IMG/VR virus record: IMGVR_UViG_3300017991_000072 | Location: 1-64,000 of that record | DNA length: 64,000 nt | Source: a virus | Direction: 5' to 3' (one strand) | In this document: piece by piece, positions 8,939-52,303 of the stretch | How the letters are laid out: every line of letters starts with the position of its first letter | Position numbering within the stretch: the first letter of the stretch is position 1 | The notes under the pieces: model-generated | Databases searched by the model: none | The model's input: the letters and a program-made list of their open reading frames with translations, nothing else | Told to the model about the DNA's origin: nothing | Translations under genes and position numbers: made by a program

Positions 8939-8941
8939 GAC

Positions 8942-34700: not shown

Positions 34701-36192
34701 GGGACCTGAACCTGATGACCAGATCGTTCTGGTTATCACAGGCCGCTGGAAGCGTCTTGGTTTCGTTCTTCCACTCCATGGGGGTGGAGATCTCCATTCC
34801 GTCCATGAAGTCATGTTGAACCCACGGACCTCCTGGCCCGTCCACAGAGTAGTCCAGGTAGCCCTTGGTGTAGGGAGGAAAGATGTCTGTCCCCGTCCAG
34901 CGCCAAGAGACCGTCACGTCCTTCATGGACTGGGTGTTCAGTTGGATGTAGGCGTATTCCACAGCGCCTTCCAGGGAGTCAATCAGCCCTTCATAGGTAC
35001 TGTCCGCCGCGCCGTAGTCCGCCACTGTGACCTTGGCCTCCGTGGACTCCGTCCAGGCCGGGTCCTGGGAGTCCCAGTCCTGGCCGTCTTCAAAGTCTTC
35101 ATAGACCAGGTCCACCAGGTCAGGAACCGTGATCAGGATTTCAGGACACACCTGGGGAAGAGGGGTTGGCGTGGCCGTAGGCGTGGCCGTGGGGACCACG
35201 GGGGTAGGCGTGTTCGTTGGGCCTGGAATGGGCGTGGCCGTGGCTATGGGCCTGACACCTGGGGGTGGGTCCGTCTCTGGGTCAAAGTAGAGCCGGAGCG
35301 CGTAGCGTCCAAGGTAGGCCCCTGGGTCAGGATCCTCTGGCCCCTCCCAGGCTTCTCCATCTTGCCACTTCAGCCAGCCGTAGCCTCCTTCCCCCCAACC
35401 TAGCCCCCAGGAATTCTTGATCTTGAACGCTGATATACTGTCATCATAGCCCACAATGGCTACCGCGTGGGTCCCCAGATATTCTCCCCAAGCGTATTCA
35501 TAGACGCCCCCCGTGTAGTAGATGATGTCTTCATAGATGACCAGCGTGGCCTCCACGGGACCTCTGAAGACCGCCGCCTTGATGGCCTCCACGTTGACGG
35601 TTCCGTAGGATAACCAGGACCATTGATTGACCTTCCAGACTCTATCTTCCCAGTCTTCACACCGGTCAAAACAGTTGTTATCCACGCCAGAGTAGCGGAG
35701 ACAGGCGTCATCTGGGACGCCCGTGTTCTTGAATAACTGGGCCGCCGCTGAAATAGACATCCCTATTTCACAGTCTCCGCCTCCACAGGAGAAGACGAAC
35801 TGTTCAGACAGATCTATGGAGTAGTCCTGGAAGCCCGTGACGATCCTGACCACAGCTTCATAGACCGCCACCTGGCTGAAGGCCGAACAGGCCCCACAGC
35901 TTCCCTGTTGTTTGACGGAAGTCATCCACGGGGACCAGTCCCAGTAGGGAGGAAGAAGGGAGAAGGCCGTGGCTGGCGGATCGTCTCCGGCTGACGTGTC
36001 ATGGGGTGGTTCCGACGCCGGGAACATGGACTTCAGTTGGGCCGTTGACTTCTCTGACAGAGATGTGTGGCCCGCTGACCAGTTCAAGCCCTTGTCCTGG
36101 ATCTCCTGTTGGATCGTGGTCATCTTGACCGCGTCCCCCAGAGCCCACACAGTCACCAAACACATCCACGTCCACAGGATGGACTTCTTCAT
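31729..36192 (-). CDS. Secreted papain-family (C1A) cysteine peptidase with TolB-like propeller and beta-sandwich modules
   Basis: Signal peptide; [36 protein letters not shown]; PD40-like P.WSPDG repeats; Pro-Thr linkers. Confidence 0.9.
32905..33057. repeat. Coding tandem repeats of 6/12 bp (PT/PTNT linker)
   Basis: Repeated GGCGTGTTCGTT-type units; shorter linkers at about 33565-33632 and 35165-35245. Confidence 0.85.
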
Positions 36193-36959: not shown

Positions 36960-37013
36960 CGTCTCCTCCTTGTCTTCGTGTAGGGATAGGTCTGGGGAAG
37001 TCTGTCAGGATCC

Positions 37014-37043
37014 ATAATACCCCAGAACAGTCCGGACCATCAA
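37014..37043 (-). promoter_or_regulatory. Possible leftward sigma70 promoter
   Basis: TTGATG-N18-TATTAT on the minus strand at the divergence point. Confidence 0.35.
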
Positions 37044-37162
37044 GCCGGGTTTGTCAAGGGGGTCCGGTTTCGCGTGTGGGATCCGGGGCCATGCTCCCCT
37101 CCCCTACCGTCCCGGACACACTATACTGTAGGCCGCGCCCACGGACGCCCCCACATCTTGGG

Positions 37163-37284
37163 CCTGAAAAAAAGTTCTCCCTGGGTCATTTTTTCTTCAT
37201 TTTTCTCTTGACAAATGGACGGGGATGGTTTAGACTATAGCCATGATGAACGAAGAAACAAACCCCAAACCCCAGGAGGCCAAG
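37163..37284 (+). promoter_or_regulatory. Promoter module 1
   Basis: T-rich tract, TTGACA(37208)-17-TAGACT, ATG 37243, shared leader plus SD. Confidence 0.85.
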
Positions 37285-37536
37285 ATGATCACCCTGACAG
37301 ACGAACAGATAGCCGTAGTGGCGGAAGCGGACAGCGTTCATGACTACGCCTGGTCCTACATCACCATCAGGAAACAGACCGCGTCCTTCCAGCGGGCCTT
37401 CTACCTGGTGGAGACGATGGTTCACAAGGCTGAACACATGGAACTGGCGGAGGACCAGGTGTCAGGGCTCCAGGTGGCCACGGAATGGCTGAAACATGAG
37501 ATCAAGAACGCGGGCCACCCAGTAGCCGGACTGTAG
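37243..37536 (+). CDS. Hypothetical early protein (second start 37285)
   Basis: Promoter module, two in-frame starts. Confidence 0.7.
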   Translation: MMNEETNPKPQEAKMITLTDEQIAVVAEADSVHDYAWSYITIRKQTASFQRAFYLVETMVHKAEHMELAEDQVSGLQVATEWLKHEIKNAGHPVAGL

Positions 37537-37595
37537 AACCCCACGGGCTCCCTGGGGATCACCCAGGGAGCCCAGAACCCCAGAAGGAGGACCCC

Positions 37596-37787
37596 ATGAT
37601 ACGGACGAAGAAAGCCAAGAAGGTTCTGACGAAGAAGGAACAGCGCCACCTGACAGAGTCCAACATACACACCATGGCCGCCATGGAGCGCCAGGTGGCC
37701 TTCCTGAAGACCTACGAAGGGAACCCCACCATCTATCCCTGTTGGGAGTGTAGGGCCATAGCCCGGAAGCTTGGTCTGATGGACTGA
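37596..37787 (+). CDS. Hypothetical protein (CWEC motif)
   Basis: Hairpin, leader and AGGAGG SD. Confidence 0.7.
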   Translation: MIRTKKAKKVLTKKEQRHLTESNIHTMAAMERQVAFLKTYEGNPTIYPCWECRAIARKLGLMD

Positions 37788-37802
37788 CGCCCAGGACCCC
37801 CG

Positions 37803-37931
37803 TGACCCCTGGAGAAAAAAATTCTCCAGGGGTCATTTTTTCTTCATTTTTCTCTTGACTTTTCTGGCTCCCTGGGTTACAATAAGATCATGGAAACACA
37901 GAAAACACCCCAAACCCCCAAGGAGGAGACG
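37803..37931 (+). promoter_or_regulatory. Terminator-promoter module 2
   Basis: TGACCCCTGGAGAA/TTCTCCAGGGGTCA stem, T tract, TTGACT(37855)-17-TACAAT. Confidence 0.9.
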
Positions 37932-38324
37932 ATGAACTGGACCAAAGAAATCAGCCAAGAGGCCGCTGACAAGGTGAAGAAGGCTGGCTACGTGGACCCC
38001 ACAGCCAACCATCACCTGATCTCTGAAGCCGCCGCTGAAGCCCACACGATCCTGGGCCAGGAGATCTTCCTGGCGAAGGACCACGCCTGTGAAGTCAGCG
38101 TCCAGATCCCCAAGACGATCACGGATGAATTCCAGGCCACCTATGACGCCTACAAGCTGATCATGATGGAGATGGAAGCCATCCACCCGGCCAACAAACC
38201 AGAACTGACGCCCCAAGGCTATGACCGCCTGATGGCTGGCCTTCAGGAAAAGGCCGCGCCCCTTCGTTCCAAGCTTTACTCCCTGGAGATGGTCCTGGTG
38301 TCCATCGTCCAGGCCCAGATCTGA
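37890..38324 (+). CDS. Hypothetical early protein (second start 37932)
   Basis: Module 2. Confidence 0.7.
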   Translation: METQKTPQTPKEETMNWTKEISQEAADKVKKAGYVDPTANHHLISEAAAEAHTILGQEIFLAKDHACEVSVQIPKTITDEFQATYDAYKLIMMEMEAIHPANKPELTPQGYDRLMAGLQEKAAPLRSKLYSLEMVLVSIVQAQI

Positions 38325-38391
38325 CGAACCACGGGGGAGGGACCACGGGGGTCCCTCCCCTTCCCCCAACCCCACAGAGGAGGACAAGAAG

Positions 38392-38826
38392 ATGAAAGCC
38401 ACCAAGGACCAGATCAGAGGAATAGTAGGAGTCTTCCAGGACATCCTGGCCAAGGCGGAAGACAAGCTGAACACCAAGGAGATGGAGATGACAGAGCCCT
38501 ACGCCCACTACACTCCCGCCAAGGACGGAGGGACCTACAGGGCTGTCTGTCTGAATGACCTTCCCAGTGAAGCCTTCCAGGCCATGGACTCCGCCACGGA
38601 GGCCGTCTCCCGCGCCAAGATGGTCATCAGGGAAGGACTCCGCTTCTGGGAATTGGGTCAGATCTCTGATGAAGACCTGGTCTTCAAGGCCGCCCAGGCC
38701 AACGTCAACCTGGCCATGGAGGCCGTGGACAAGGCCCTGGAAGCCCCCAACCCCAGGCCCAAGACCAGGCCCAGGCCCATCAAGGCCAGGTTTGGGGAGA
38801 CCAGGCCAGCGTTCCCCGTGTCATAG
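38392..38826 (+). CDS. Hypothetical protein
   Basis: Hairpin, leader and SD. Confidence 0.7.
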   Translation: MKATKDQIRGIVGVFQDILAKAEDKLNTKEMEMTEPYAHYTPAKDGGTYRAVCLNDLPSEAFQAMDSATEAVSRAKMVIREGLRFWELGQISDEDLVFKAAQANVNLAMEAVDKALEAPNPRPKTRPRPIKARFGETRPAFPVS

Positions 38827-38835
38827 TTGACACAG

Positions 38836-38972
38836 CCCCCTGGTGAAAAAAAATTCGCCAGGGGGTCTTTTTTCTTCACTTTTCTCTTGACAAATGGGGG
38901 ACCATGGTTTATAATAGAGCCATGATGAAGGAAGGAAACAAACCCCAAACCCCCCAAAAGGAGGAGGACCTG
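38836..38972 (+). promoter_or_regulatory. Terminator-promoter module 3
   Basis: Stem with a G-U pair, TTGACA(38887)-17-TATAAT. Confidence 0.9.
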
Positions 38973-39383
38973 ATGATGACCCTTCAAGAAGCTACCGCTG
39001 GACTGATCGCTGGAACCGTGACCACGGATGACCTGAAGGTCCAAGGGTTCACGGCTGATGAACTGATCGCTGTGGTGGAGGCCATCCCGCCGTTCACAGG
39101 CTGTCCCTGTTGTTCGGATGAAGAGCCCGGCGCTGACTACGCGGACTTCAACATGTCCCTGTCCCGTCAGTTGGCCTTGGCTGACGTGAAGGTCTGTGGG
39201 TCCTGTGGAGCCATCCACGGAACCGTGGAGACCTGGGAAGCGGCCCACATGGTCTACCACCCCACGATGGTGGCCAAGGCCACGGGGGAGGAGATCTACG
39301 TGGACCTGACGATCCGTTCAGAGAATGAACGGTTCCATGGCTGGATGGACTCCGCCACCAAGAACCTGACCCAGGTTGGCTAG
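38922..39383 (+). CDS. Hypothetical Zn-binding protein (CPCC..CGSC; second start 38973)
   Basis: Module 3. Confidence 0.7.
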   Translation: MMKEGNKPQTPQKEEDLMMTLQEATAGLIAGTVTTDDLKVQGFTADELIAVVEAIPPFTGCPCCSDEEPGADYADFNMSLSRQLALADVKVCGSCGAIHGTVETWEAAHMVYHPTMVAKATGEEIYVDLTIRSENERFHGWMDSATKNLTQVG

Positions 39384-39457
39384 GACCTGGGAGGAAGCCA
39401 GGGAGGGACCCGTGGGTCCCTCCCTTCTTCGTTCAACCCCAAACCCAGGAGGAGACG

Positions 39458-39664
39458 ATGACCAGAGAAGAGGCCCAACGGATGGACCCAGAGGAGGCCA
39501 AGCTGAAGGCCAAGAGACTGGCCCAGGAAGCTGATGAACTGATCTCCAAGATGGAACTGGCCCACCCCCATTCCCAACGCTACACTGAACTGTGGAACGA
39601 ACTGACAGCCGTGGAACAGGAACAGCTAGTTCTGACCTGGGCTCCAGGCTACGGAGCCTGGTGA
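39458..39664 (+). CDS. Hypothetical protein
   Basis: Hairpin, leader and SD. Confidence 0.7.
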   Translation: MTREEAQRMDPEEAKLKAKRLAQEADELISKMELAHPHSQRYTELWNELTAVEQEQLVLTWAPGYGAW

Positions 39665-39722
39665 CGGAATAGAGCCCAGGCCCTACCCCTGGCGAACGAT
39701 CCAGGGGAGGGACCTGGGACGG

Positions 39723-39755
39723 GAGCCCCGGCGTTCAGACCGGGGCTCTTTTTTT
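39723..39755 (+). terminator. Intrinsic terminator
   Basis: GAGCCCCGG..CCGGGGCTC followed by T7. Confidence 0.8.
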
Positions 39756-39859
39756 GTCTGGATCCCCTGGCCTATGCTCCGCCTCCGCACCGTCCCGGAT
39801 GTGGTATTATCCCACCACAATGTCAAGAGAAGAGTGAAAAAAATTTCGTCTGGTGTCAA

Positions 39860-40001
39860 GATTTCTTCATTTTTCTCTTGACTTTTAGGATTGACCTGGG
39901 GTATAATAGGGCCACAGTCAAGATAGTTGACTGGTTGAATTCGGATCTTTGACAACTGAATAACGGACACAGAAACCCCCAAACCCCAAGGAGGGAAACC
40001 C
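39860..40001 (+). promoter_or_regulatory. Promoter module 4 with hairpin and rrn-type boxA in the leader
   Basis: TTGACT(39878)-18-TATAAT; hairpin 39915-39933; GATCTTTGACAACTGAATA at 39944-39962. Confidence 0.75.
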
Positions 40002-40241
40002 ATGGACGTGTTCTCTGTTCTGATCATCGTGGCTGTGGTTCTGACCAAGGTGGAGGCCCTGGAGGACGCCCTGGAGGCTTCTGAAGCGGACTTCTTCCCC
40101 GCCCAGGTCCTTGTGGTCCTGGTGGCCAGGGACGCCCTGGTGGGAGCCCTGGCGGGCTTCCTGGAGACGGGAACGGGGCTCCAGGATCTCCTGGACGCGG
40201 CCCTGGACCTGGATGACGCCCTGGTCAAGCTGGCGAAGTAG
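40002..40241 (+). CDS. Hypothetical Leu/Ala-rich protein
   Basis: Leader and GGAGG SD. Confidence 0.6.
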   Translation: MDVFSVLIIVAVVLTKVEALEDALEASEADFFPAQVLVVLVARDALVGALAGFLETGTGLQDLLDAALDLDDALVKLAK

Positions 40242-40246
40242 AAACA

Positions 40247-40380
40247 GACCCCCAGAGAAAAAAATTCTCTGGGGGTCATTTTTTCTTCATTTTTCCCTTG
40301 ACTTTTAGGAATGGGTGGTTTATAATAGGGTCATGATGAACGAAGGAAACAAACCCCAAACCCCCAAGAAGGAGGAAACC
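40247..40380 (+). promoter_or_regulatory. Terminator-promoter module 5
   Basis: GACCCCCAGAGAA/TTCTCTGGGGGTC; TTGACT(40298)-17-TATAAT. Confidence 0.9.
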
Positions 40381-40638
40381 ATGAACCAGATGACAACGAA
40401 GAAGAACGCGGGAAGAGACATGGTCCGGAAGGTGAAGGCGGAACAGATGTCCTTTGTGACGGAGGACCAGTTGGCCGTTATCGCGGAGGACGATGAAACC
40501 AGGATGACCCCCATCCTTGTCCGCTGTGGGAATGGACGCTTCACGTGTCCCGCCCAGAACGCGGCCTGGTTCATTGACATCATCACCAAGGAAGGGACGG
40601 ACTACGTCAGGGACGCCTCCATCTACTCCAGCTACTAG
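40333..40638 (+). CDS. Hypothetical early protein (second start 40381)
   Basis: Module 5. Confidence 0.7.
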   Translation: MMNEGNKPQTPKKEETMNQMTTKKNAGRDMVRKVKAEQMSFVTEDQLAVIAEDDETRMTPILVRCGNGRFTCPAQNAAWFIDIITKEGTDYVRDASIYSSY

Positions 40639-40652
40639 CCTGAACCCCTCCA

Positions 40653-40786
40653 GCCCCCCAGAGAAAAAAATTCTCTGGGGGGCCTTTTTTCTTCACTTTT
40701 CTCTTGACTTTCTTGACGGGGTGGGCTATAATAAGATCATGGAAACAGCGAACAAACCCCAAACCCCCAAACCCCAGGAGGACAGA
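40653..40786 (+). promoter_or_regulatory. Terminator-promoter module 6
   Basis: Same stem; TTGACT(40704)-17-TATAAT. Confidence 0.9.
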
Positions 40787-41191
40787 ATGTCAGTCACACA
40801 GTTCAGCGCGGAAGCCGTTTCCCAGATGGCCCACAGCATAGCCGCCCACGCCCGTCTTGATGAAGAGTTGGCGGAGATCATCCTGGAGTCCAAGGCGGCC
40901 CACCACGCTGGCCGCGTGGAGTTCAACCTGGACACGGATGACGTTTCCTTCAAGCTGGTCCACTACATGAGGCTGTCCAACCTGGTGGCCTACTCCATCC
41001 AATACCAGGAGCCCATGGTTCCCGTCTACACCATTGATGACTACTACGGGGAACCCCTGGTGGCCAAGGAGCTGGCGGAGGAAATTGACCACTGGATCTA
41101 CAACGTCCAGACCAACGCGGGGACCGCCCTGGTGGACCCGCTCTGGTTTGAACTGTTCCAGGCTGTCAGGGACCACCTGGCCGCGAAGTAG
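40739..41191 (+). CDS. Hypothetical early protein (second start 40787)
   Basis: Module 6. Confidence 0.7.
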   Translation: METANKPQTPKPQEDRMSVTQFSAEAVSQMAHSIAAHARLDEELAEIILESKAAHHAGRVEFNLDTDDVSFKLVHYMRLSNLVAYSIQYQEPMVPVYTIDDYYGEPLVAKELAEEIDHWIYNVQTNAGTALVDPLWFELFQAVRDHLAAK

Positions 41192-41204
41192 CCCACGGCC
41201 TCCA

Positions 41205-41332
41205 GACCCCCAGAGAAAAAAATTCTCTGGGGGTCATTTTTTCTTCATTTTTCTCTTGACTTTTCCCCGGGGATGGGTTACAATAAGATCATGGAAACAG
41301 GAAATCAACCCCAAACCCCGAAGGAGCCCAAG
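41205..41332 (+). promoter_or_regulatory. Terminator-promoter module 7
   Basis: Same stem; TTGACT(41256)-17-TACAAT. Confidence 0.9.
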
Positions 41333-41563
41333 ATGAAGATGAACCCCAACGGATCAGTCAGTTTCAGCTATGAAGAGATCGTGGCGGCGGCGGAAGAGAC
41401 CAAGAAGGCGGAAGCGGCCCGCGCCAACGCGCCCATGATGGCCGTCAGCTATGAAACCCCCGTAGGGACCTTCAAGGACTGGATCAAGGCGGCGGAGCGC
41501 GTGGAGGCTTTGGACATGGACCCCGTGGAGGTCATCAAGGTAGTCAGAACCCCTATCAGCTAA
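41291..41563 (+). CDS. Hypothetical early protein (second start 41333)
   Basis: Module 7. Confidence 0.7.
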   Translation: METGNQPQTPKEPKMKMNPNGSVSFSYEEIVAAAEETKKAEAARANAPMMAVSYETPVGTFKDWIKAAERVEALDMDPVEVIKVVRTPIS

Positions 41564-41630
41564 GGACAGGAACCACGCCCCCCCAGGATCCCCTGGGGGG
41601 CCAACCCCAACCCCAACGAAGGAGGACACG

Positions 41631-42029
41631 ATGAACAGACAAGCCAAGATCCCCCAGGAGATGGCCACCTACCTGGTGGACGCGGAGGACAAAGGCTGGA
41701 CCGGTGGCCAGGTGACCAGGTGGGTCCGGAACTGGATGAAGGACCTAGTCTGGGATGACAAGGACCCCCTGGGGGAGTCCGTGGCCGTGACCGTCCCCTG
41801 TTCCCTGGTGGACCAATACGGGAAGCTGATGGCCAAGGAGGACGAAGTCAGGACCTTGATGGAGACCAGAGCCCAGACCCTTGGCCTGGTGTCCTGTGAC
41901 CCCAGGTCTGAAGAGTACAGGGAGACCAGGAGGAAACACCTGAACCTAGTCAACGCCCTGGACATGGTCAGGGAGTCCAGGAGGAACCTGGAAGACGCCA
42001 TGACCTGGGTCCTGTTGGCCCAACTGTAG
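41631..42029 (+). CDS. Hypothetical protein
   Basis: Hairpin, leader and SD. Confidence 0.7.
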   Translation: MNRQAKIPQEMATYLVDAEDKGWTGGQVTRWVRNWMKDLVWDDKDPLGESVAVTVPCSLVDQYGKLMAKEDEVRTLMETRAQTLGLVSCDPRSEEYRETRRKHLNLVNALDMVRESRRNLEDAMTWVLLAQL

Positions 42030-42080
42030 ACGAACCCAACGCGGCCCCCTGGGGAGACCTGGGGGGCCAAGGAGGACCCC

Positions 42081-42386
42081 ATGGAAGGACAAGAACCCAA
42101 GATGGTCTCCGTCATGGTGGCGGAGAAGCTTCTACAGGATTATGACACGGCCTTGATGGGAGCCAGGAACATGGAGGGACGCCTATTGAACGCTGAACAG
42201 TGTCTTCTCCAGTCCGTCCTGGACTGTGACCAGGAAGCCTATGAAGAGGCCCTGGCCCAGAGGGACAGGGTCCAGGCTTCTCTGGACCTGGCCAAGAACC
42301 AGGCGGCGGCCCTGTCCGTCACGATAGCCAAGAAGGCCCTTCAAGACTGGATGACCCCAGGGACTCCAGTCTTCCCAGAGGATTGA
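42081..42386 (+). CDS. Hypothetical coiled-coil protein
   Basis: Hairpin and AAGGAGG SD. Confidence 0.7.
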   Translation: MEGQEPKMVSVMVAEKLLQDYDTALMGARNMEGRLLNAEQCLLQSVLDCDQEAYEEALAQRDRVQASLDLAKNQAAALSVTIAKKALQDWMTPGTPVFPED

Positions 42387-42387
42387 A

Positions 42388-42446
42388 CCACGGGTCCTCC
42401 CGTGGGTTTGGGGTGGGGCTCCCCCAGGGGTGGGGGAGCCCCTTTC
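42388..42446 (+). ncRNA. 3'-end anti-leader element plus terminator
   Basis: GTCCTCCCGTGGGTTTGGGGT (antisense to shared leader), then GGGGCTCCCCCA/TGGGGGAGCCCC stem and TTT. Confidence 0.55.
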
Positions 42447-42448
42447 TA

Positions 42449-42477
42449 TTGACTTCAGGCGGACCATGGTCTACACT
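42449..42477 (+). promoter_or_regulatory. sigma70 promoter for sRNA-1
   Basis: TTGACT-17-TACACT. Confidence 0.7.
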
Positions 42478-42483
42478 GAAGCC

Positions 42484-42565
42484 TGATCCACAGGGAACGG
42501 CGGGGCTTCCCCGTCCTCCTTGGGGTTTGGGGTAGGGGTCCAGGAGGGGTCCTGGACCCCTCTTT
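42484..42565 (+). ncRNA. Putative anti-leader sRNA-1
   Basis: Own promoter and terminator, no ORF; 42513-42533 is the exact reverse complement of ACCCCAAACCCCAAGGAGGAC. Confidence 0.65.
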
Positions 42566-42615
42566 ATATTGTGGTTCTTCTTGAACAGCTCCCCCACATG
42601 TGGTATGGTGGAACC

Positions 42616-42705
42616 TGCTAGGGCTGACTTGGTGTCCGTACCAGCGCCGGGTCACTCTGTTTCCTCCTTTGGGCTCCCCACGCGCCACGGGGAGCCCTTC
42701 CCTTC
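42616..42705 (+). ncRNA. Putative anti-SD sRNA-2
   Basis: TTGAAC(42581)-17-TATGGT promoter, 10-bp stem with three G-U pairs, GTTTCCTCCTTTGGG, terminator-like stem 42671-42697. Confidence 0.5.
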
Positions 42706-42707
42706 TA

Positions 42708-42723
42708 TGTTCCACGTGAAACC
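42708..42723. promoter_or_regulatory. parS-like site
   Basis: TGTTCCACGTGAAACC, 15/16 match to TGTTNCACGTGAAACA; intergenic. Confidence 0.55.
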
Positions 42724-42863
42724 CTGACTCCCTGGACCCCCGGGCCATGCTCCGGCCGGAGACCGTCCCGGATGTGGTATTCATCCACCACAACGTCAAG
42801 TCCCCACTTGACACGCCCCCCTTCCTCCTCCCCCCTGGTTATGCTCCCCCCAGGAAATCCGGG

Positions 42864-42911
42864 ACACCACATGTGGTATACCCACGGCCACGGACCCCCT
42901 ACATTTTGTGG
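42864..42911. promoter_or_regulatory. Tandem NrdR-box-like operator pair (32 bp apart)
   Basis: ACACCACATGTGGTAT and CCCCTACATTTTGTGG. Confidence 0.5.
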
Positions 42912-42919
42912 TGTCATAT

Positions 42920-43029
42920 AGCGAATTTTTCTACACTGAACCCTTGACAACAGGGGGTCCCCTGGTGTATATTAGGGGTAGATAGTGAGAATGAAACGGA
43001 CCCCAGAACCCCAAACCAAGGAGGACAGG
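42920..43029 (+). promoter_or_regulatory. Promoter module 8 (divergent copy)
   Basis: TTGACA(42944)-18-TATATT with TG; leader and SD. Confidence 0.75.
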
Positions 43030-43416
43030 ATGAACGCAAGAACCAACGATGACTTCAGGAAGGAAGGAACCAGGAAGGCCACGCTGGCGTTCCTTTCCGC
43101 CCTGACAGAACAGGAGGAAAGCGGAGAACCCCCGGCCATGTTCATGATCTGTCAACAGAAGAACCCCATCACGGGACGGAGGAATGAAGTCAGGTTGACG
43201 GCCGGTGTTCAGGCCATGGGAGCCATAGCGGCCGGTCACGTCCTGAAAGCCGTTCATGACTTTGACACCTTCACAGAGGATAATGACCCCTACGGGGAAC
43301 ATGACTTTGGGATCGTCAGGATGGAAGGGGAAACCCTGAACTGGAAGATTGATGACTACCAGGGCTATGATGGGATTGAATTGGTCCTGACCATCATGAC
43401 GGCCATGGAATACTAG
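42991..43416 (+). CDS. DUF3768-like protein (second start 43030)
   Basis: FDTFTEDNDPYGEHDFG, WKIDDY, VLTIMTAMEY signature. Confidence 0.8.
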   Translation: MKRTPEPQTKEDRMNARTNDDFRKEGTRKATLAFLSALTEQEESGEPPAMFMICQQKNPITGRRNEVRLTAGVQAMGAIAAGHVLKAVHDFDTFTEDNDPYGEHDFGIVRMEGETLNWKIDDYQGYDGIELVLTIMTAMEY

Positions 43417-43477
43417 AAACCCCAGGGAGCCCGGCCACGGCCGGGCTCCCACCACCCCCCAAACCAAGGAGGACAGA

Positions 43478-43741
43478 ATGGACCCCATCACGAACCCAAG
43501 ACCCACCACCCACCAATGGAAGGAAGGGGACAGGGTAGCCTTTTCTAAAGCCTTCCTCCGCAACACTGGCCAGTGTGACTATGAAACGGCCAGAGGCCGG
43601 GGGACCATCATCAGCGTGGCCCCCGTGGGGGACCTGACCATAGCGTCTATCAGATGGGACGGGATAGGTCTGGTCACTAACGTCAACGTGTTGAACCTGT
43701 CCCTGGTCACCAGGGACGGGGTAGTTCAGGACAGGGACTAG
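43478..43741 (+). CDS. Small SH3-like beta-barrel hypothetical protein
   Basis: GDRVAFSK.FLR..RGTI..IRWD..NV..NL. Confidence 0.65.
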   Translation: MDPITNPRPTTHQWKEGDRVAFSKAFLRNTGQCDYETARGRGTIISVAPVGDLTIASIRWDGIGLVTNVNVLNLSLVTRDGVVQDRD

Positions 43742-43801
43742 GAAGTCACCAGGGAGCCCTGGCGCTGGCCGGGGCTCCCACCCCCACCCAAGGAGGACAG
43801 G

Positions 43802-44041
43802 ATGGATCTGGAACGCTACAGGGTCTTCACAGCCCAGAAATTCATGGCCATGACCACGGGGGAACGCCAGAGGACAAAGCCCACCATGATGTTCAGCCGG
43901 GAATACCTGGCCCTGGCCCTGGCGCTGGCCTCTGAAAAGGTCATCATCTATGACGCCCAGGAAGACCTGGCGTGGCATTGTGGGGACCTGGTCACGAAGG
44001 CGGGATGGTACGATGGGAGCGGACAGCTAGTCAACCCGTAG
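43802..44041 (+). CDS. Hypothetical protein
   Basis: Hairpin, leader and SD. Confidence 0.65.
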   Translation: MDLERYRVFTAQKFMAMTTGERQRTKPTMMFSREYLALALALASEKVIIYDAQEDLAWHCGDLVTKAGWYDGSGQLVNP

Positions 44042-44267
44042 CCCTTCACCGGGGACCTGGTGAAGGGGTCCCCTTGGTTAGCCGGTCCCGGGGAAACCCG
44101 GGGCCGGTCTTTTTATGCTCCCCTCTGGCCCCGTCCCGGATTGTGGTATACTGTATCCACAATGTCAAGCCCTGGCTTGACGGGCCGTCTGCTAATCCAC
44201 GAAAAGCCGGGACGGCCCCACATGTGGTAGGCCCCGTCCACCACCCCTATATTTTGTGGTGTCCGTG

Positions 44268-44382
44268 GGCGTCTTTTTCTTCACTTTTCTCTTGACAAAA
44301 GGGGAACGCCGGGCGTATAATAGACCTGTAAGCTGAACAAAGGGTTCAGCGAAACCCCAACCCCCAACCAAGGGAGGACAGA
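44268..44382 (+). promoter_or_regulatory. Promoter module 9
   Basis: TTGACA(44292)-18-TATAAT; 5' hairpin GCTGAAC/GTTCAGC in place of an upstream ATG. Confidence 0.85.
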
Positions 44383-44580
44383 ATGTTGGTAGCGTGTTAC
44401 AAGACCAAGAAGGCTTTGAAGGAAGCCGTGGGACAGGCTCTTCTATATGAAGAGACTTCCTTGTTCGGGGAGGAATACCGCCCGGACGGGACGTTCCCAG
44501 TGGTAGGCCCCGGGGCCTATGAGCGTAAATGGTACGCGGAAGTTACCATGAAGGGAGGGAAGATCCACAAGGTCAAGTAG
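44383..44580 (+). CDS. Small phage hypothetical protein
   Basis: YKTKKALKEAVG..ETSLFGEEY..RKWYAEVTM pattern; leader and SD. Confidence 0.75.
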   Translation: MLVACYKTKKALKEAVGQALLYEETSLFGEEYRPDGTFPVVGPGAYERKWYAEVTMKGGKIHKVK

Positions 44581-44639
44581 GAACCTGAACCGGCCCGGGG
44601 CTCCGGCCCCGGGCCATTCTTCCAACCAAGGGAGGAACC

Positions 44640-44924
44640 ATGAACACACAAGAGACCCTAGAATTCACTGGACACCAGATGGCCCGGGCCAATACGGTCC
44701 TGTCAAGCCTTGACGGAGCTGGCCCTATGTCCGTCTGTAAAGCCGCCGCCGTGGCCCAGAAGGCCAACCAAATAGCGGAAAGCCTACCAGCCCTTGACAA
44801 GCTGGCCGGACACCTTGAAAGCCATCCTGATGACCCCGTGGCCCTTCTGGCCGTTCAAGCCTATACCGTGGCCGTGGGCGTCCACCTTGACCTTCTGGAA
44901 CTGACCCTTCAAATGACCCTATAG
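44640..44924 (+). CDS. Hypothetical protein
   Basis: Hairpin, leader and SD. Confidence 0.65.
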   Translation: MNTQETLEFTGHQMARANTVLSSLDGAGPMSVCKAAAVAQKANQIAESLPALDKLAGHLESHPDDPVALLAVQAYTVAVGVHLDLLELTLQMTL

Positions 44925-45185
44925 CCTCCCCCCAGGGGGGAGGAATTCCCCCTTGGTTGGCCCCGGTCCCTTCTGGGACCGGGGCCTTTCTTTTGTCAAC
45001 CCCAGACTTGACATAGTGGTGTGCAAATGTCATTTTCCGTCCCGGACGTTGACCGTTTCCCAGGGCTCCCAGAGCGGAGCGGAGCGGAGCGGGTCCCCGT
45101 AGGGGACCACGGCCCCCGTCCCATCCGGGACGGGGGCCGGGAACCGCATAGAGAGAAGAGACCGGAACCGGACCCGGCCGGACCC

Positions 45186-45311
45186 ACCTGAAAAAAAATT
45201 CGCGGGAGGACGTTTTTTCTTCACTTTTCCCTTGACTTTCGTTCTGGGATGGTTTAGAATAGGGGTGTAATGAGGAAACGAAACACACCCCAAACCCCGA
45301 AGGAGGCCAAG
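45186..45311 (+). promoter_or_regulatory. Promoter module 10
   Basis: TTGACT(45232)-17-TAGAAT. Confidence 0.85.
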
Positions 45312-46226
45312 ATGGCAACACAGAGCGGACAGGACAAGGTTTTCCAGATCTTCACAGACCAGATCATGGACATGTTGGAAGAGGGGACGGTCCCCTGGCG
45401 TCAACCTTGGAAGGGCGGGAAGATCCCCATGTCCTTCCAGACCAAGCGGCCCTACCGTGGGATGAACGTCTGGTTCCTGAACAGCGTGGCCATTCATCGC
45501 GGCTACACATCCAACTGGTGGGTGTCCCTGAAGTCAGTGAAGAAGGCCAAGGGCTGGATCAAGGACGATGAATTCAAGAAGTCAGTGACCGTGATCTTCT
45601 GTAGGCCCAAGCGGTACGAAGTGGAGACGGACGAAGTGGACGAACAGGGCCAGCCGGTCAAGGAAGAGCGGATGTCCTTCATCTACTTCTACCACACGGT
45701 ATGGAACATGGACCAGGTGGAAGGGATGACGGCCCCTGACGCGGACCAGGACGCGGAGGAGCGGACCCCCAACCAGATCCTTGAAGAGGCCCAGGCCATC
45801 ATTGACGGCTACCAGAACGGCCCAGAGATCAGCCACGGCGGGACCAGGGCTTTCTATCGTCCCTCTGATGACTCCGTGACGGTCCCAGAGATGGAACTGT
45901 TCCAGGACAGCGAGAACTACTACCACGTGATGTATCATGAACTGGCACACTCCACGGGTCACGGTTCCCGCCTTGGGCGGAAGGGAGTCATGGACCTGAC
46001 CATGTTTGGATCCCATGACTACTCCAAGGAGGAACTGGTGGCGGAGATGGGAGCGGGCTTCCTGGGAGCCCTGGTGGGACTGACCCCCAGGACCATTGAC
46101 AACACGGCGGCCTACATCCAGTCCTGGCTGAAGGCCCTGAACGATGACAAGCGGCTCCTGGTCTACGCGGCCAGCAAAGGCCAGGCGGCGGCGGAACACA
46201 TCCTGGGCGTGACCTGGGAAGGATAA
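45270..46226 (+). CDS. ardC: ArdC-like ssDNA-binding anti-restriction protein (DUF1738 plus zincin-like domain; second start 45312)
   Basis: PWRQPW, RPYRGMN, VWN.DQ.EG, AFYRPS.D, HELAHSTGH..RL.R, YSKEELVAE, AAYIQSWL. Confidence 0.9.
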   Translation: MRKRNTPQTPKEAKMATQSGQDKVFQIFTDQIMDMLEEGTVPWRQPWKGGKIPMSFQTKRPYRGMNVWFLNSVAIHRGYTSNWWVSLKSVKKAKGWIKDDEFKKSVTVIFCRPKRYEVETDEVDEQGQPVKEERMSFIYFYHTVWNMDQVEGMTAPDADQDAEERTPNQILEEAQAIIDGYQNGPEISHGGTRAFYRPSDDSVTVPEMELFQDSENYYHVMYHELAHSTGHGSRLGRKGVMDLTMFGSHDYSKEELVAEMGAGFLGALVGLTPRTIDNTAAYIQSWLKALNDDKRLLVYAASKGQAAAEHILGVTWEG

Positions 46227-46301
46227 CAGGGAGGAAGCCTGGGAGTCCCACAGTGGGGCTCCCAGGCCCTTCAAACCCCAAACCAGAAGGAGGACAGAAC
46301 G

Positions 46302-46775
46302 ATGGAACAGACAGACTACACAGCGGACAGAGAACTGGCGGTCAAGGCCCTGGAACAGATGGACTACATCCACCTGGAACGCGGACAGGTGGCGGCCCTG
46401 GTGGACACCTACCGGGTCATCACCACCCATAACCCTGGCGCGGTCCCAGGCCATGAAGAGGAACTAGGGACCCTGGCCGGGCTCCTGGTCATGAGCGTAG
46501 GAACTGGCGTCAAGCTGATCCCAGAGGACGGACCCCCCAACGTCCGGGTGGGAGTCCCCAGGCTCCTGGTGGAAGCCATCAAGGACATCAACATCCAGAG
46601 GGACAAACTGGCGGCCTACAAGGAGGAACACAAGGACGGAGGAGGACCAATAGACCCCAAGTCCATGGAAGTCCTGGAGGCCCAACAGGCTACCCACAGG
46701 GCGGCCCTTTCCACGGCCCTGGTCAACGTCATCATCACGGACTTGGCTGGAATGGCGGACGCTGGAAGCTACTAG
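46302..46775 (+). CDS. Hypothetical protein
   Basis: Hairpin, leader and SD; terminator at about 46793-46832. Confidence 0.7.
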   Translation: MEQTDYTADRELAVKALEQMDYIHLERGQVAALVDTYRVITTHNPGAVPGHEEELGTLAGLLVMSVGTGVKLIPEDGPPNVRVGVPRLLVEAIKDINIQRDKLAAYKEEHKDGGGPIDPKSMEVLEAQQATHRAALSTALVNVIITDLAGMADAGSY

Positions 46776-46916
46776 ACTGACCCTCCCCCACAGAGCCCCG
46801 GCCCGGTTCGTCCGGTCCGGGGCTCTTCTTTTATGCGGGCCGGGACTAGCGTCCCGGATATACGCCATTTCCCACGGTCCCCATCACGTGGTAGACTATG
46901 GATGAAAGGAGATCCC

Positions 46917-47219
46917 ATGACCTACACTCTATCCCAGGCGGGGACGGCCTACGCTGAAGCGGCGGCCACGTGGGCCAGGGCTATGGAAGCGGAGGAGGCG
47001 GTCAGACAAGAAGGCCCTGACCTGAAGGTTGACAAGTTCCTCCACGTGACGGCCTTGTCCACAGTGATCCGCCAGGCTATGAACGGCCTGTCCCAGGCTG
47101 TCATGATCTTCATCTGGCGAAACAACGAAGGGAACCACGCGGTCCTGGAAGCGGCCATGGCGGAGACTATCCGCGTGACGGCGGACGCCAACGCCCTTAT
47201 GGACTCCTACGGATACTGA
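46917..47219 (+). CDS. Hypothetical Ala-rich protein
   Basis: AAGGAG SD; TGG-TAGACT extended -10 upstream. Confidence 0.6.
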   Translation: MTYTLSQAGTAYAEAAATWARAMEAEEAVRQEGPDLKVDKFLHVTALSTVIRQAMNGLSQAVMIFIWRNNEGNHAVLEAAMAETIRVTADANALMDSYGY

Positions 47220-47365
47220 ACCCCCTGGACCCCTGGGCCACCAATGACTGTTTATTAACCCTGAACTGTCATTCTGTTGTTACCGGTTATCAGGCCCAGG
47301 GGTCTTTTCTTTCCCCCACGCGGGCGCGGGCGGGCGCGTGGGCGCGTATACGCGGGCGCGGGGCT

Positions 47366-47490
47366 CCTGAAAAAAGTTCTCCCAGGGCGTTTTTTTCTTC
47401 ACTTTTCTCTTGACATCCGTGGACGGGTCCCCTATAATAAGGACCATGGACACAGCGACAAACCCCAAACCCCAAACCACGGAGGACAAC
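47366..47490 (+). promoter_or_regulatory. Promoter module 11
   Basis: TTGACA(47410)-17-TATAAT. Confidence 0.85.
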
Positions 47491-47829
47491 ATGTCCACAC
47501 TGAACGCCCTTGGAACCCTTCTCTACAGCCTCCCCGTTCCCACCCGTCACGCCTACACCATCACCATCTGTGACCAATACCAGGACACAGAGCCTACCAC
47601 CTGTGTGGTCAACGCGGAGACCCAGGGCGCGGCCCTGGCCAAGGCTGTGGAGGTCTACTCCACAGAATTCTACGGCCACGCGGTCACCCTGGACCCCCAG
47701 GTCCTTCATGACGCTGTCACCGTCATCTTCCATCCTGACGGCGGCGTGAACCCCGTGGGGTTCTTCGCCAGTGACCCCCAACCCATCCGCCTTCAGCGCC
47801 TTGGGGACCCTGTCCCCTTGTCCGCGTAA
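47446..47829 (+). CDS. Hypothetical protein (second start 47491)
   Basis: Module 11. Confidence 0.65.
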   Translation: MDTATNPKPQTTEDNMSTLNALGTLLYSLPVPTRHAYTITICDQYQDTEPTTCVVNAETQGAALAKAVEVYSTEFYGHAVTLDPQVLHDAVTVIFHPDGGVNPVGFFASDPQPIRLQRLGDPVPLSA

Positions 47830-47895
47830 GCGGACCCCCTGGGGGGTGGGAATTCTCCCACCCCCCGGCTGGAACCCCAAACCCAGGAGGACATC

Positions 47896-48096
47896 ATGGA
47901 CCAAGTCAAGAAGAGCCTGACCAAGAAAGCCCTGAAGGCCAAGCTGAACCAAGCCAGGGAAGAGCTGACCTACCTGGAGGACTTCCTGGCGGGACCCTGT
48001 TGTGTGTCCCACGCGGAGATTGACGCGGCCGGGGATGACACCTACAGGCTTCAGAAGGAGATCAGGGAGCTGAAGGAGGCCCTGGCGGCCCTGTGA
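47896..48096 (+). CDS. Small coiled-coil protein
   Basis: Hairpin, leader and SD. Confidence 0.7.
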   Translation: MDQVKKSLTKKALKAKLNQAREELTYLEDFLAGPCCVSHAEIDAAGDDTYRLQKEIRELKEALAAL

Positions 48097-48111
48097 TCTT
48101 TTTTTCGTCAG

Positions 48112-48210
48112 GCGGCGTTTTTTCTTCACTTTTCTCTTGACAAAGCCTGAAGGATGGTTTACACTTACACCATGGACACAGACCGCAAACCCCAGACCCA
48201 GGAGGACACG
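48112..48210 (+). promoter_or_regulatory. Promoter module 12
   Basis: TTGACA(48137)-17-TACACT. Confidence 0.85.
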
Positions 48211-48819
48211 ATGAACGAAGATCACATCACCCAAGAGGCCACGCGGCGGCTGGAAGCCCTTCACCCCTACCTGACCAGGGAGATCAAGCTGGCTCCCCCG
48301 TCTCCCCCAGAGAAGACGGCTGAAGAGTACAGGGAAGAAGCGGCCCGTCACGCGGCGGAGCGCCTACGGTCCCAACAGGAGTCAGACACGGACGGGTTCC
48401 TGTCCCAGTGGGCCAGCGGCCTGAACAGTTCCCTGGCGTCCAGGCGGGCGGAGATCAAGGAGAACGGCGGGAACTGGGAGTTCTGGGGACTCTACCGTAG
48501 GGCGGACGGGAAGCGGATCAGGGCCAAGATGATAGACGGGAAGTATGGCCTCTGTTGGGCCATCTGTGACGAACATTCCACCTTCACGGGTCAGTTCTTC
48601 TCCGTGGACGGGACGGGCTCCAAGAGGACCAAGCTGTGGAAGGCTGGCCTGGAAGAGCGGCGTGAAATGGCCCCGGCTTGGGCCAAGATGGACGGGAAGG
48701 GAACGGGCCTGTCAGGTCAGGCTTGGGTGTCCACCTACAGGATAGACGGCGGCTACCCCTTGGACGCGGTCAACCTGGACTCCCCCGTGGAGGACCCTGA
48801 CCCCACGCCGGACCCATAG
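48172..48819 (+). CDS. Phage hypothetical protein (SDTDGFLSQWASG motif; second start 48211)
   Basis: Module 12. Confidence 0.7.
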   Translation: MDTDRKPQTQEDTMNEDHITQEATRRLEALHPYLTREIKLAPPSPPEKTAEEYREEAARHAAERLRSQQESDTDGFLSQWASGLNSSLASRRAEIKENGGNWEFWGLYRRADGKRIRAKMIDGKYGLCWAICDEHSTFTGQFFSVDGTGSKRTKLWKAGLEERREMAPAWAKMDGKGTGLSGQAWVSTYRIDGGYPLDAVNLDSPVEDPDPTPDP

Positions 48820-48879
48820 CCTTCCCCCAAGAAGGCCAAGAGGACGGAAGCGGAACTACGGCGGGACCTTTCCGCCATC

Positions 48880-49011
48880 ATGAGGGGTCACAGAGTATGT
48901 CAGGACTGTGGCCAGGTCAGGCCCACGGCTGAAGTCCACGTCCCTGGACGTGGGATGGCTAGGGTCTGTCAGGACTGCTATGACGTGGCTGTCTATGAAC
49001 TGACGGCCTAA
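48880..49011 (+). CDS. Possible 43-aa zinc-ribbon peptide
   Basis: MRGHRVCQDC..VCQDCY; weak SD. Confidence 0.35.
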   Translation: MRGHRVCQDCGQVRPTAEVHVPGRGMARVCQDCYDVAVYELTA

Positions 49012-49041
49012 CCCCAACCCCCAGGACAGGAGGAAGGAACG

Positions 49042-50343
49042 ATGGACAAGGAGAAGATCAAGGAGCTGTGTGACAAGGTGGAACACCTGACTGAATGGGC
49101 TGAAATAGGCGCGGCCTGGACAAGGGACCAGGCCACGTCAGAGTCCACGGAGAAGGACGCCAGGGTCAACCTGGAACTGGCCCACCAGGAGGAGAAGGAA
49201 CTGTTGGACTTCCTGACGGGCCTGATCAAGGAGGAGGACACCAGGTCCCCGGAGATGGTGTCCCTGGATTGGATGTTTGACGCGGCGGAGGAACACCTTC
49301 TGGACGAAGACGGAGAAGTCACCTGTGAAGTGGAGGAACTACGGACCCACTACCAGGTAGTCCTGAACAACTTGAAGGAGCTGGCCCTTCTTCGTGAACG
49401 CTACCAGTCCTTGAAGATCAGGGCCTTCTCCGCCATGTATGGAACCTTCATTCCCGCCAGGGAGGACGGGCTGAACCACTACTTCCAGTCCATCACGGCG
49501 GAGCGGGAGGCCAAGGAAATGACGGAGGCCCTGGACGCCCTGGAACACCTGAACAAGGAGGCCAGGGAAGGGAACATAGCTGTCTACGATGGGGAAGAGA
49601 ACTGTGAAGCCCTTCTTCAGGACATCAAGGACGCCTACAGGATCCTGTGGGACTTCATCACGGGCTCCAACACCAGGAACATTCAGAACCTTCCCAGGAC
49701 GGTCACAGGACGGTTCACGGACTCCCCCAATTTCCAGGAGGTCCCCAAGACGGAGTCCACGGCGCGGCCCATCGTGAAGGCCCCTGGTCCCTCCCCCTAC
49801 GCCCAGATCTTCCAGGTCATTGGGAACGTGGTTCCCCAGGAAGCGGCGGAAGCTGTGGACCTGGCCATCCGTCAGTATGACGGATCCTTCAGCGGGACTC
49901 CCCTGAAGGACCTAGTGATGAAGACCTGGGGAGCCCTGGACGGGGACGCCAGGATGGCCCATGACAGGCTGTCAGGCCACATCCAGACCAGCGCGGACCC
50001 AGACATCAGGGAGGACAGGCTGAAGGACCTGGTGACCCTGGTGGGCTCCCTGAACGCTGAAGAGAAGGCCAGCTACTCCGTGGCTGTGGACATGTTCCTG
50101 AAGGCCAGGATCATCTCCACGTTTGAACGGGCCTTTGACATCAACCATACGGAAGCGGCGGAGATCTTTGACAGGGTCCAGGACGGGGAGCCCTTGGAGG
50201 CCATCCTGGTGGACATCCTGACCGTGGCGGAACGCCATGACCCCAACCAGTTCAGGGCGGGGATCTTGGCCATCCTGAAGAAGGGACATGGGATCTCCAA
50301 CGCCCAGAACAAGATTGGGGGTGATCCCAGTGATAAAGAGTGA
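49042..50343 (+). CDS. Hypothetical helical protein (433 aa)
   Basis: Leader and SD; typical codon usage. Confidence 0.75.
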   Translation: MDKEKIKELCDKVEHLTEWAEIGAAWTRDQATSESTEKDARVNLELAHQEEKELLDFLTGLIKEEDTRSPEMVSLDWMFDAAEEHLLDEDGEVTCEVEELRTHYQVVLNNLKELALLRERYQSLKIRAFSAMYGTFIPAREDGLNHYFQSITAEREAKEMTEALDALEHLNKEAREGNIAVYDGEENCEALLQDIKDAYRILWDFITGSNTRNIQNLPRTVTGRFTDSPNFQEVPKTESTARPIVKAPGPSPYAQIFQVIGNVVPQEAAEAVDLAIRQYDGSFSGTPLKDLVMKTWGALDGDARMAHDRLSGHIQTSADPDIREDRLKDLVTLVGSLNAEEKASYSVAVDMFLKARIISTFERAFDINHTEAAEIFDRVQDGEPLEAILVDILTVAERHDPNQFRAGILAILKKGHGISNAQNKIGGDPSDKE

Positions 50344-51470: not shown

Positions 51471-51479
51471 GAGCCCAAG

Positions 51480-52110: not shown

Positions 52111-52125
52111 AGAGTCTACATGAAG

Positions 52126-52187: not shown

Positions 52188-52303
52188 TATGGGGGCGGGG
52201 GTCTTGACGCTGGTGGCGTGAAGTGGATAGGCTGTCAACATTGGCGGGAAGACTGGGCCTGGCGGGGACATACTACCTGTGGGGGGTAGTGAAGGAGGAC
52301 AGG

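Follow-up and report, generated by a model that had tools for sequence, protein, structure and literature searches.

The stretch of DNA analysed here, referred to as the window, comprises bases 1-64000 of the IMG/VR virus record IMGVR_UViG_3300017991_000072 (99,864 bp; rated complete by CheckV). Between 37.1 and 48.2 kb, it carries an 11-kb array of 12 copies of a composite of about 130 nt, which we call modules, all on the plus strand and found nowhere else in the 99.9-kb genome. Each module follows the order hairpin, T-rich block (TCATTTTTTCTTCAYTTTTCTC), promoter (TTGACW-17/18-TAnAnT), C/A-rich leader and AGGAGG Shine-Dalgarno (SD) sequence, and related contigs are mosaic across the open reading frames (ORFs) lying between the copies. 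The array lies within the sole long plus-strand block of the window (37.2-52.7 kb), which diverges from the virion genes at 36960-37284; few other plus-strand ORFs appear in the ORF list genome-wide.

The copies were delimited with several searches. The 19-mer TTTTTTCTTCAYTTTTCTC recurred at 11 distinct sites at ≤3 mismatches, all on the plus strand between positions 37189 and 48136, where 0.02 would be expected by chance; the copy at 42944 is the twelfth and is more diverged than the other 11. A nhmmer profile of the twelve copies returned exactly 12 matches in the whole genome at 78-124 bits, with everything else at or below 17 bits, and a whole-genome pattern search agreed on the module sites. 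All 12 -35 positions named in the original prediction read TTGACA or TTGACT, and its twelve modules were borne out by the consensus scan and the nhmmer profile alike. The spacer from the -35 to TAnAnT is 17 nt in nine copies and 18 nt in three. Scored against a sigma-70-type consensus, the predicted promoters of all 12 modules reached 10-12 of 12, and the same scan found 23 promoter-like sites in 16.5 kb versus 3.5 in shuffles. The hairpin is of the type GACCCCCAGAGAA-AAAAA-TTCTCTGGGGGTC and is followed, after one or two bases, by the T-rich block, which directly adjoins the -35 in 11 of the 12 copies. The leader is T-free and holds AAACCCCAAACCCC, and AGGAGG stands 5-8 nt before the ATG of the first gene in every module (12/12). 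The features of the array are as follows.

37161-37284 (+): module 1, with a degenerate hairpin relic (GAAAAAAAGTTC), T-rich block, -35 at 37208 and -10 TAGACT
37243 (+): upstream AUG in the module 1 leader, in frame with the SD-led ATG at 37285
37285-37536 (83 aa) and 37596-37787 (63 aa, basic, CxxC) (+): genes of unit 1, both ORFans
37802-37931 (+): module 2, with terminator hairpin (-28 kcal/mol), T-rich block, -35 at 37855, -10 TACAAT and leader
37932-38324 (130 aa) and 38392-38826 (144 aa) (+): genes of unit 2
38834-38972 (+): module 3, with hairpin (-25.5 kcal/mol), promoter scoring 12/12 and -35 at 38887
38973-39383 (136 aa) and 39458-39664 (68 aa) (+): genes of unit 3
39831-40001 (+): module 4, with no good hairpin and -35 at 39878; separate terminator at 39721-39750
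40002-40241 (+): gene of unit 4 (79 aa, hydrophobic N-terminus)
40245-40380 (+): module 5, with hairpin, -35 at 40298 and -10 TATAAT
40381-40638 (+): gene of unit 5 (85 aa)
40650-40786 (+): module 6, with hairpin (-27.5 kcal/mol) and -35 at 40704
40787-41191 (+): gene of unit 6 (134 aa, net charge -13)
41202-41332 (+): module 7, with hairpin and -35 at 41256
41333-41563 (76 aa), 41631-42029 (132 aa) and 42081-42386 (101 aa) (+): genes of unit 7
42387-42890 (+): long non-coding hub, with an anti-leader hairpin, terminators, a weak promoter and copies of a second motif
42891-43029 (+): module 8, the most diverged, with -35 at 42944, spacer 18, -10 TATATT and a different upstream element
43030-43416 (DUF3768, 128 aa), 43478-43741 (87 aa) and 43802-44041 (79 aa) (+): genes of unit 8
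44239-44382 (+): module 9, with promoter scoring 12/12 and -35 at 44292; separate terminator at 44081-44108
44383-44580 (65 aa, phrog_37117) and 44640-44924 (94 aa) (+): genes of unit 9, followed by a terminator at 44959-44986
45178-45311 (+): module 10, with a hairpin relic only, -35 at 45232 and -10 TAGAAT
45312-46226 (+): ArdC-type gene of unit 10 (304 aa; ArdcN ssDNA-binding and zincin metallopeptidase domains, HELAH)
46302-46775 (157 aa) and 46917-47219 (100 aa) (+): further genes of unit 10
47362-47490 (+): module 11, with promoter scoring 12/12 and -35 at 47410
47491-47829 (112 aa) and 47896-48096 (66 aa) (+): genes of unit 11
48085-48210 (+): module 12, with a U-tract without good hairpin, -35 at 48137 and -10 TACACT
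48211-52714 (+): longer operon behind module 12, running to a terminator at 52155-52182
37537-37595, 38325-38391, 39384-39457, 41564-41630 and 42030-42080: within-unit spacers
43417-43477, 43742-43801, 44581-44639, 46227-46301 and 47830-47895: within-unit spacers

On SD-based calls, the units behind modules 1-11 hold 2, 2, 2, 1, 1, 1, 3, 3, 2, 3 and 2 genes. The anticipated one to three genes per module therefore hold for these eleven units; they do not for module 12, which heads the longer operon, and gene 46917-47219 has a terminator-like hairpin of its own upstream (about 46792-46834), together with an extended -10-like site. The array ORFs are mostly small and acidic, and no pair of them matches at BLASTP E<0.04, in agreement with their earlier description as unrelated; an origin of the cassette genes as paralogues from tandem duplication was rejected for this lack of significant similarity. 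A 49-aa ORF at 44953-45102, overlapping the terminator at 44959, is probably no gene. The 250-nt spacer between that terminator and module 10 contains a tandem run of four GAGCG units (about 45070-45095) and two further GC hairpins.

Relatives were sought by scanning public collections for the module core. Nine contigs, all from one JGI metagenome series, aligned to the region and are designated by R numbers; other single-copy pattern matches in the public collections showed no alignment to the phage genome, and scans of IMG/VR proteins with the flanking genes yielded one close contig and nothing more.

The hairpin is strong in modules 2, 3, 5, 6 and 7 (-25.5 to -28 kcal/mol, z -4.9 to -6.8), where an independent scan called it terminator-like; it is weak or absent in modules 1, 4, 8, 10 and 11 and intermediate in 9 and 12. 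These folding energies match the division into clear and degenerate stems drawn beforehand from the letters. Poor-stem modules usually have a separate strong terminator in a longer upstream spacer (39721, 42415, 42534, 44081, 44959), and module 1 has nothing upstream to terminate. Among 13 full hairpins from the window and three relatives (four genomes), 13 of 13 base pairs were retained, four of them with both partners substituted (C-G to T-A and A-T to G-C, among others); the retention of pairs through double-sided compensatory changes argues that the stem is under selection as a structure. Moreover, in the consensus of 31 distinct modules, the 19-nt T-rich block is conserved as well as the -35. 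It sits at about -55 to -37, where UP elements lie, and this geometry fits a terminator U-tract that doubles as an UP-like element.

Within the units, genes are joined in a second way. The ten within-unit spacers share one plan: a stop codon, about 8-15 nt, a 10-14-bp GC hairpin without U-tract, and then the same C/A-rich leader and AGGAGGAC. Whole-spacer folding energies range from -24 to -38 kcal/mol, and the hairpins vary in sequence and retain structure, as seen in the paired changes between the window and R2 at 44592-44620. A transcript stabiliser, a processing site and a translational insulator are possibilities for their function.

Comparison with the relatives revealed mosaicism. R1 and R2 stem from two different samples, agree with each other and, outside gene-sized blocks, match the window at about 100% identity. 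In both, 37932-38324 is swapped for an allele of 52% amino acid identity inside 100%-identical flanks, identity being lost at the SD and regained about 15 nt before the stop codon. In R1, R2 and R5, an unrelated 252-aa ORF stands where the window has 39458-39664 (68 aa); here, the sequences part at the SD/ATG, and identity returns precisely at the TGA. Furthermore, in R2, the 44640-44924 protein shows 82% amino acid identity between 100%-identical flanks, and the 46302 and 46917 proteins show 69% and 74%, with ArdC at 100%; the left break of this 46302-47219 block lies 2 nt before the 46302 ATG, and identity is back just upstream of module 11. The edges of the R1/R2 blocks thus fall at the SD/ATG in three cases and otherwise at one stop codon or immediately before modules 10 and 11, and no clear-cut junction deep inside an ORF was found between the window and R1 or R2.

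Other relatives differ by loss, replacement and order. R5 lacks the 40002 cassette and has in its place a single module composed of the upstream half of module 4 and the leader of module 5, a hybrid which places the crossover in the shared promoter core. R3 lacks 40787, and the promoter, spacer and leader start of module 6 are joined to the leader end of module 7 before the 41333 homologue, with the crossover inside AAACCCCAAACCCC; it also carries an unrelated 154-aa ORF in place of 41631-42029 (132 aa). In R6, 47896-48096 is absent and an intact terminator hairpin stands in its place before module 12. The more distant R4 (about 72% DNA identity, with collinear flanking virion genes) has an array of ten promoter-like sites, namely eight full modules and two weaker profile matches, in which the 41333 homologue precedes the 37285 homologue, the 37596 homologue has moved to another unit with its own upstream hairpin-leader, and about eight ORFs have no window counterpart. 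Five related contigs (L095, L048, L085/L009, L010, L084) begin or end within module 11, 1 or 3: the contig ends of R2 and R3 lie at module 11 and those of R8 and R9 at module 1, and R5 starts at module 3, a pattern in keeping with strain variation or with repeats that interrupt the assemblies there.

Cassette loss with hybrid modules, ORF-precise replacements, an indel by module 12 and reordering support the proposed recombinational gain and loss of cassettes, and the comparison clearly did not show fixed gene content and order without breakpoints at modules. Of the breakpoints expected at modules, those at the shared leader/SD and in the hybrid modules were found there, but many fall instead in the promoter-less second joint. 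Because junctions lie in these within-unit joints, the exchange unit is often a single ORF with its 5′ leader and not a whole promoter cassette.

We consider it likely that the array is a hyperplastic early region, cut by the twelve module copies into autonomous units, whose joints act as recombination patches on the principle of the promoter-early stem-loops (PeSLs) of T4-type phages. On this model, host RNA polymerase with the primary sigma factor would fire all twelve promoters at the start of infection. A full module would stop the upstream unit at an intrinsic terminator (13-15-bp GC-rich stem, A-rich loop, U-tract), keeping the units short and insulated, and transcription would restart about 25 nt on, at a near-consensus sigma-70-type promoter whose T-rich block is the U-tract region of the terminator. 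The module would then supply the shared C/A-rich leader with a strong SD and, in most copies, an AUG that sits at the predicted start of the transcript, shares the SD-led frame and is probably leaderless. With every gene preceded by the same 20-130 nt, homologous recombination could exchange ORFs and leave expression intact, either between co-infecting relatives or between modules of one genome. The joints are the only sequence common to unrelated genes, which suggests that they are the homology patches for swap, deletion, insertion and reordering, and thus a cause of exchange rather than a marker of it. A phage-encoded RecA homologue (genome positions 84645-85745, minus strand; PF00154, 2.7e-49) may assist recombination across such short homologies.

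The long array spacers hold a second repeated motif, restricted to them, which consists of ATGCTCC, about 10 nt, CGTCCCGGA and then TGTGGTATTAT or TGTGGTATACT (37091-37130, 39774-39827, 42747-42800, 42841-42885, 44115-44169 and about 46840-46905). The end of this motif can be read as an extended -10 of the TRTGnTATAAT type that lacks a -35, and CCACAATGTCAAG follows in three copies; the motif may represent a second (middle?) promoter class or a regulator site.

An alternative view of the array, which we regard as unlikely, is that the TCATTTTTTCTTCAYTTTTCTC block and the GAAAAAAATTC core bind a phage or host protein that switches the twelve promoters together, with an early-to-middle switch as one possibility and the terminator and UP roles secondary. 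Conservation of TCATTTTTTCTTCAYTTTTCTC base for base, far beyond the need of a generic A/T-rich UP element, would be explained in this way, as would the survival of the A-tract core (GAAAAAAATTC) in the hairpin-less modules 1, 10 and 11 and in the relatives' counterparts, and the second promoter-like motif class in the same region could take over later. Nevertheless, covariation shows that the stem itself is selected where present, no candidate regulator was identified, and protein binding at these sites would be compatible with a recombination role.

Several observations weigh against the favoured model. Seven of the 12 modules are without a good terminator hairpin. The relatives all derive, as metagenome contigs, from a single sample series, and several end at modules, so that strain mixing in assembly is possible. 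The nearest neighbours of module cores do not group by genome, and clear within-genome homogenisation, or frequent gene conversion, is not evident; concerted evolution of the modules is accordingly not claimed. Several junctions, finally, lie in promoter-less joints or exactly at stop codons, so that exchange can proceed without the promoter module itself, and sharp gene-border junctions could be selection's leftovers after illegitimate recombination. The last points would be expected if the modules formed a regulon only, that is, selected early promoter-terminator copies in a region of illegitimate recombination whose surviving breaks lie at gene borders, with the repeats marking and not driving the events; maintenance of the T-rich block like the -35 across relatives of 72% identity, which argues for functional constraint, is also in keeping with this. 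We judge that explanation quite improbable, as the crossovers of two independent hybrid modules fall within shared sequence, and at three left junctions the break is right at the 3′ edge of the leader/SD, which homology-guided exchange predicts and random breakage is unlikely to produce. An assembly artefact, with short-read assemblers jumping between co-occurring strains or repeated modules, is highly improbable: the contig ends at modules 1, 3 and 11 show the assembly graph breaking at repeats, but R1 and R2 share the same variant structure over 7.8 kb in different samples, the left part of R4 finds confirmation in R8, different modules are exactly identical over stretches of only about 30-50 nt, below usual assembly k-mers, the hybrid modules are continuous sequences, and the divergent alleles and extra ORFs exist regardless, embedded in identical flanks.

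Besides its place in the reading of the joints as recombination patches, the leader has features of a translation signal. Of the distinct modules, 27 have an ATG a short way downstream of the -10, and in all 27 this ATG shares its frame with the SD-led ATG and no stop intervenes; in most copies it lies six bases after the -10, where the transcript start is expected, and its distance to the SD-led ATG is 39, 42, 45, 48 or 51 nt. Modules 4 and 9 have no upstream AUG. Since AAACCCCAAACCCC is read in different frames in different modules, the constraint on the leader is on frame and not on peptide. Transcripts probably begin at the upstream AUG, with ribosomes starting there in leaderless fashion. 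The module 4 leader (39908-39960) is atypical, with a palindrome (CAGTCAAGATAGTTGACTG) that may be an operator and further GTCAAG/TTGAC words.

GGGTTTGGGGT occurs three times (at 42387-42565 and 52126-52187), with a terminator hairpin after every copy. One of these, at 42513-42533, is complementary to the shared leader/SD (ACCCCAAACCCCAAGGAGGAC) over 21 nt without a mismatch; it is preceded by a weak promoter at 42449 (TTGACT-17-TACACT) and followed by a terminator at 42534-42561, and the hub also has an anti-leader hairpin with a terminator at 42415-42442. The segment 42449-42565 is thus a candidate for an antisense RNA directed at all the early leaders. We tentatively suggest, while thinking it rather doubtful, that the module is a plug-in expression unit with leaderless and SD-led starts, whose leader/SD is targeted by this phage antisense RNA. 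If so, one small RNA could shut off translation of the whole early set, newly acquired cassettes included, every promoter-proximal gene would have two initiation routes, and the 20-30-nt leader would be translation signal, regulatory handle and recombination patch together.

No family match was obtained for 20 of the 23 array ORFs in Pfam and PHROGs, and the three matches are ArdC, DUF3768 and a PHROG of unknown function. The ArdC gene (45312-46226) matches PF08401 at 3e-24 and PF18818 at 3e-37, and its protein matches the solved ArdC structures 6i89 and 6sna over its full length (E 1.7e-39) and contains HELAH, which conforms to HExxH. Judging from its sequence, the ArdC homologue is intact, and an anti-restriction role is predicted. 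Pfam searches of ten ORFs of the relatives, nine of them without a window homologue, returned nothing, as did PADLOC on the array ORFs searched, a PDB sequence search of the DUF3768 and 38973 genes and a literature search on DUF3768; ESM Atlas gave only weak helical look-alikes for the 38392 and 46302 genes. The setting, with early signals, small acidic ORFans and fast turnover, is typical of host-takeover and counter-defence genes. That most array genes act on host defence or host takeover is conceivable, at somewhat less than an even chance: of the anti-defence/host-takeover island put forward in the original prediction, the recognisable, intact ArdC stands, the other ORFs give no supporting assignment, and the idea remains a lead only.

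Two unrelated ArdC-bearing viral contigs carry repeats of their own, with sequences quite unlike the module array. In L013 (IMGVR_UViG_3300042154_002686, positions 1-11000), an array upstream of ArdC holds 13-14 terminator hairpins, each followed by GAGGGTAGGTC and a TTGACCGAAC-type site and spaced 0.3-1.8 kb apart; the repeats include terminator-like hairpins followed by TTGACC-containing units. In L012 (11600-16900), six TTATAAC-N5-GTTATAA palindrome units lie downstream of ArdC.

Judged from its gene content, the phage is siphovirus-like and lytic-type, has a genome of about 100 kb with a G+C content of 57%, and belongs to a lineage unrelated to T4. Minus-strand virion genes occupy bases 1-36959 and encode an SPP1-type portal, large terminase (TerL), capsid protein, tape-measure-like protein and beta-helix protein; at the end of this block (31729-36192, minus strand) lies a gene for a 1487-aa protein whose N-terminus carries a papain-family cysteine protease domain (PF00112, 4e-31). 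The remaining genome encodes a family A DNA polymerase, DnaB-type helicase, RecA, DNA methylase and MoxR-type ATPase, and no tRNA genes were found in the window. Among cultured phages, TerL is nearest to that of Bacillus phage BCD7 (39% identity), followed by Streptomyces BRock-like siphoviruses (33%), and no match to cultured phages was found at the nucleotide level.

A 21-mer of the promoter block had 29 matches in reference genomes, 14 of them from Acidobacteriota. The Terriglobia metagenome-assembled genome OY970291.1 carries 14 dispersed copies of an intergenic repeat of about 200 nt that holds the phage-module 20-mer TTCTTCAYTTTTCTCTTGAC, preceded by TTTCCCATTTYGGGAAC; heterogeneous genes lie downstream, with no rRNA or tRNA following. 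An Acidobacteriota host was rejected on account of these downstream genes and because 58 of 61 sampled genomes of the same class were without any copy; the 20-mer match is either coincidence or a shared promoter type and gives no host assignment.

The closest known parallel is provided by the PeSLs of the T4-type phages RB49/phi1, PST/T4 and nt-1/KVP40 (Arbiol et al. 2010, PMC2839356; Comeau et al. 2014, PMC4122927), one of two parallels drawn beforehand, with the SPO1 host-takeover module, that our analysis supports. Both PeSLs and modules span about 100 nt or more and combine a promoter of sigma-70 type with an A/T-rich region upstream of it and a 3′ SD with start codon, to which a stem-loop, a predicted terminator in the modules, is added; both are concentrated in a hyperplastic region before ORFans; and in both, close relatives differ by indels or replacements at the motifs, with a chimeric motif remaining after cassette loss. 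The stem-loop is strong in 5 of the 12 window copies and degenerate in the others, with termination predicted from sequence. The modules differ in forming one tandem array of 12 co-oriented copies, whereas PeSLs number about 50 and are dispersed, and in lying outside the T4-like myoviruses, in a phage with an SPP1-type portal. In addition, the module copies resemble one another far more closely and share an invariant 19-nt block; any stem-loop present precedes the T-rich block in the position of a canonical terminator; an in-frame, probably leaderless AUG occurs in the leader; and a second, promoter-less joint is also used for exchange. By these comparisons, the array works like PeSLs but is no member of the T4-like set by descent.

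The SPO1 host-takeover module (Stewart et al. 1998, as summarised in PMC6873191) resembles the array in that, according to that summary, regions of about 12 kb hold some two dozen small early genes in many short operons, with mostly homologue-less products and strong host-type promoters and ribosome-binding sites, the latter two being predicted for the array. There is no sequence relation, and SPO1 genes have shown host-shutoff roles, whereas the array genes have no recognisable domains for such roles. The start-associated sequences (SAS/ESAS) of Cluster K mycobacteriophages (Pope et al. 2011, PMC3203893) are likewise short, conserved sequences that contain a ribosome-binding site, stand just upstream of many start codons and often follow an inverted repeat; their counterpart here is the shared leader AACCCCAAACC-AGGAGGAC with its preceding hairpin. 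However, the sequences differ, ESAS inverted repeats are conserved in sequence and the array hairpins in structure only, and SAS have not been linked to promoters or cassette exchange. Another PeSL-like proposal outside T4-like phages, as described by the paper that cites it (PMC3950731), concerns the haloarchaeal virus HGTV-1, which has a conserved TATA-box and inverted-repeat motif before left-arm ORFs and differs by its archaeal promoter logic.

Collectively, the small early ORFs beside an intact ArdC, about 23 of them resident and at least 10 alternative, form a candidate set for host-takeover and counter-defence screens, and the module offers a compact natural promoter-terminator-RBS (ribosome-binding site) part. 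With identical flanks, ORF-precise swaps and two hybrid modules, the array is an unusually clean example of this organization, and it adds two testable features beyond PeSLs, namely a promoter-less second joint for single-gene exchange and an in-frame, probably leaderless start. The PeSL principle is likely to operate here in a high-G+C, siphovirus-like lineage far from the T4-like phages.

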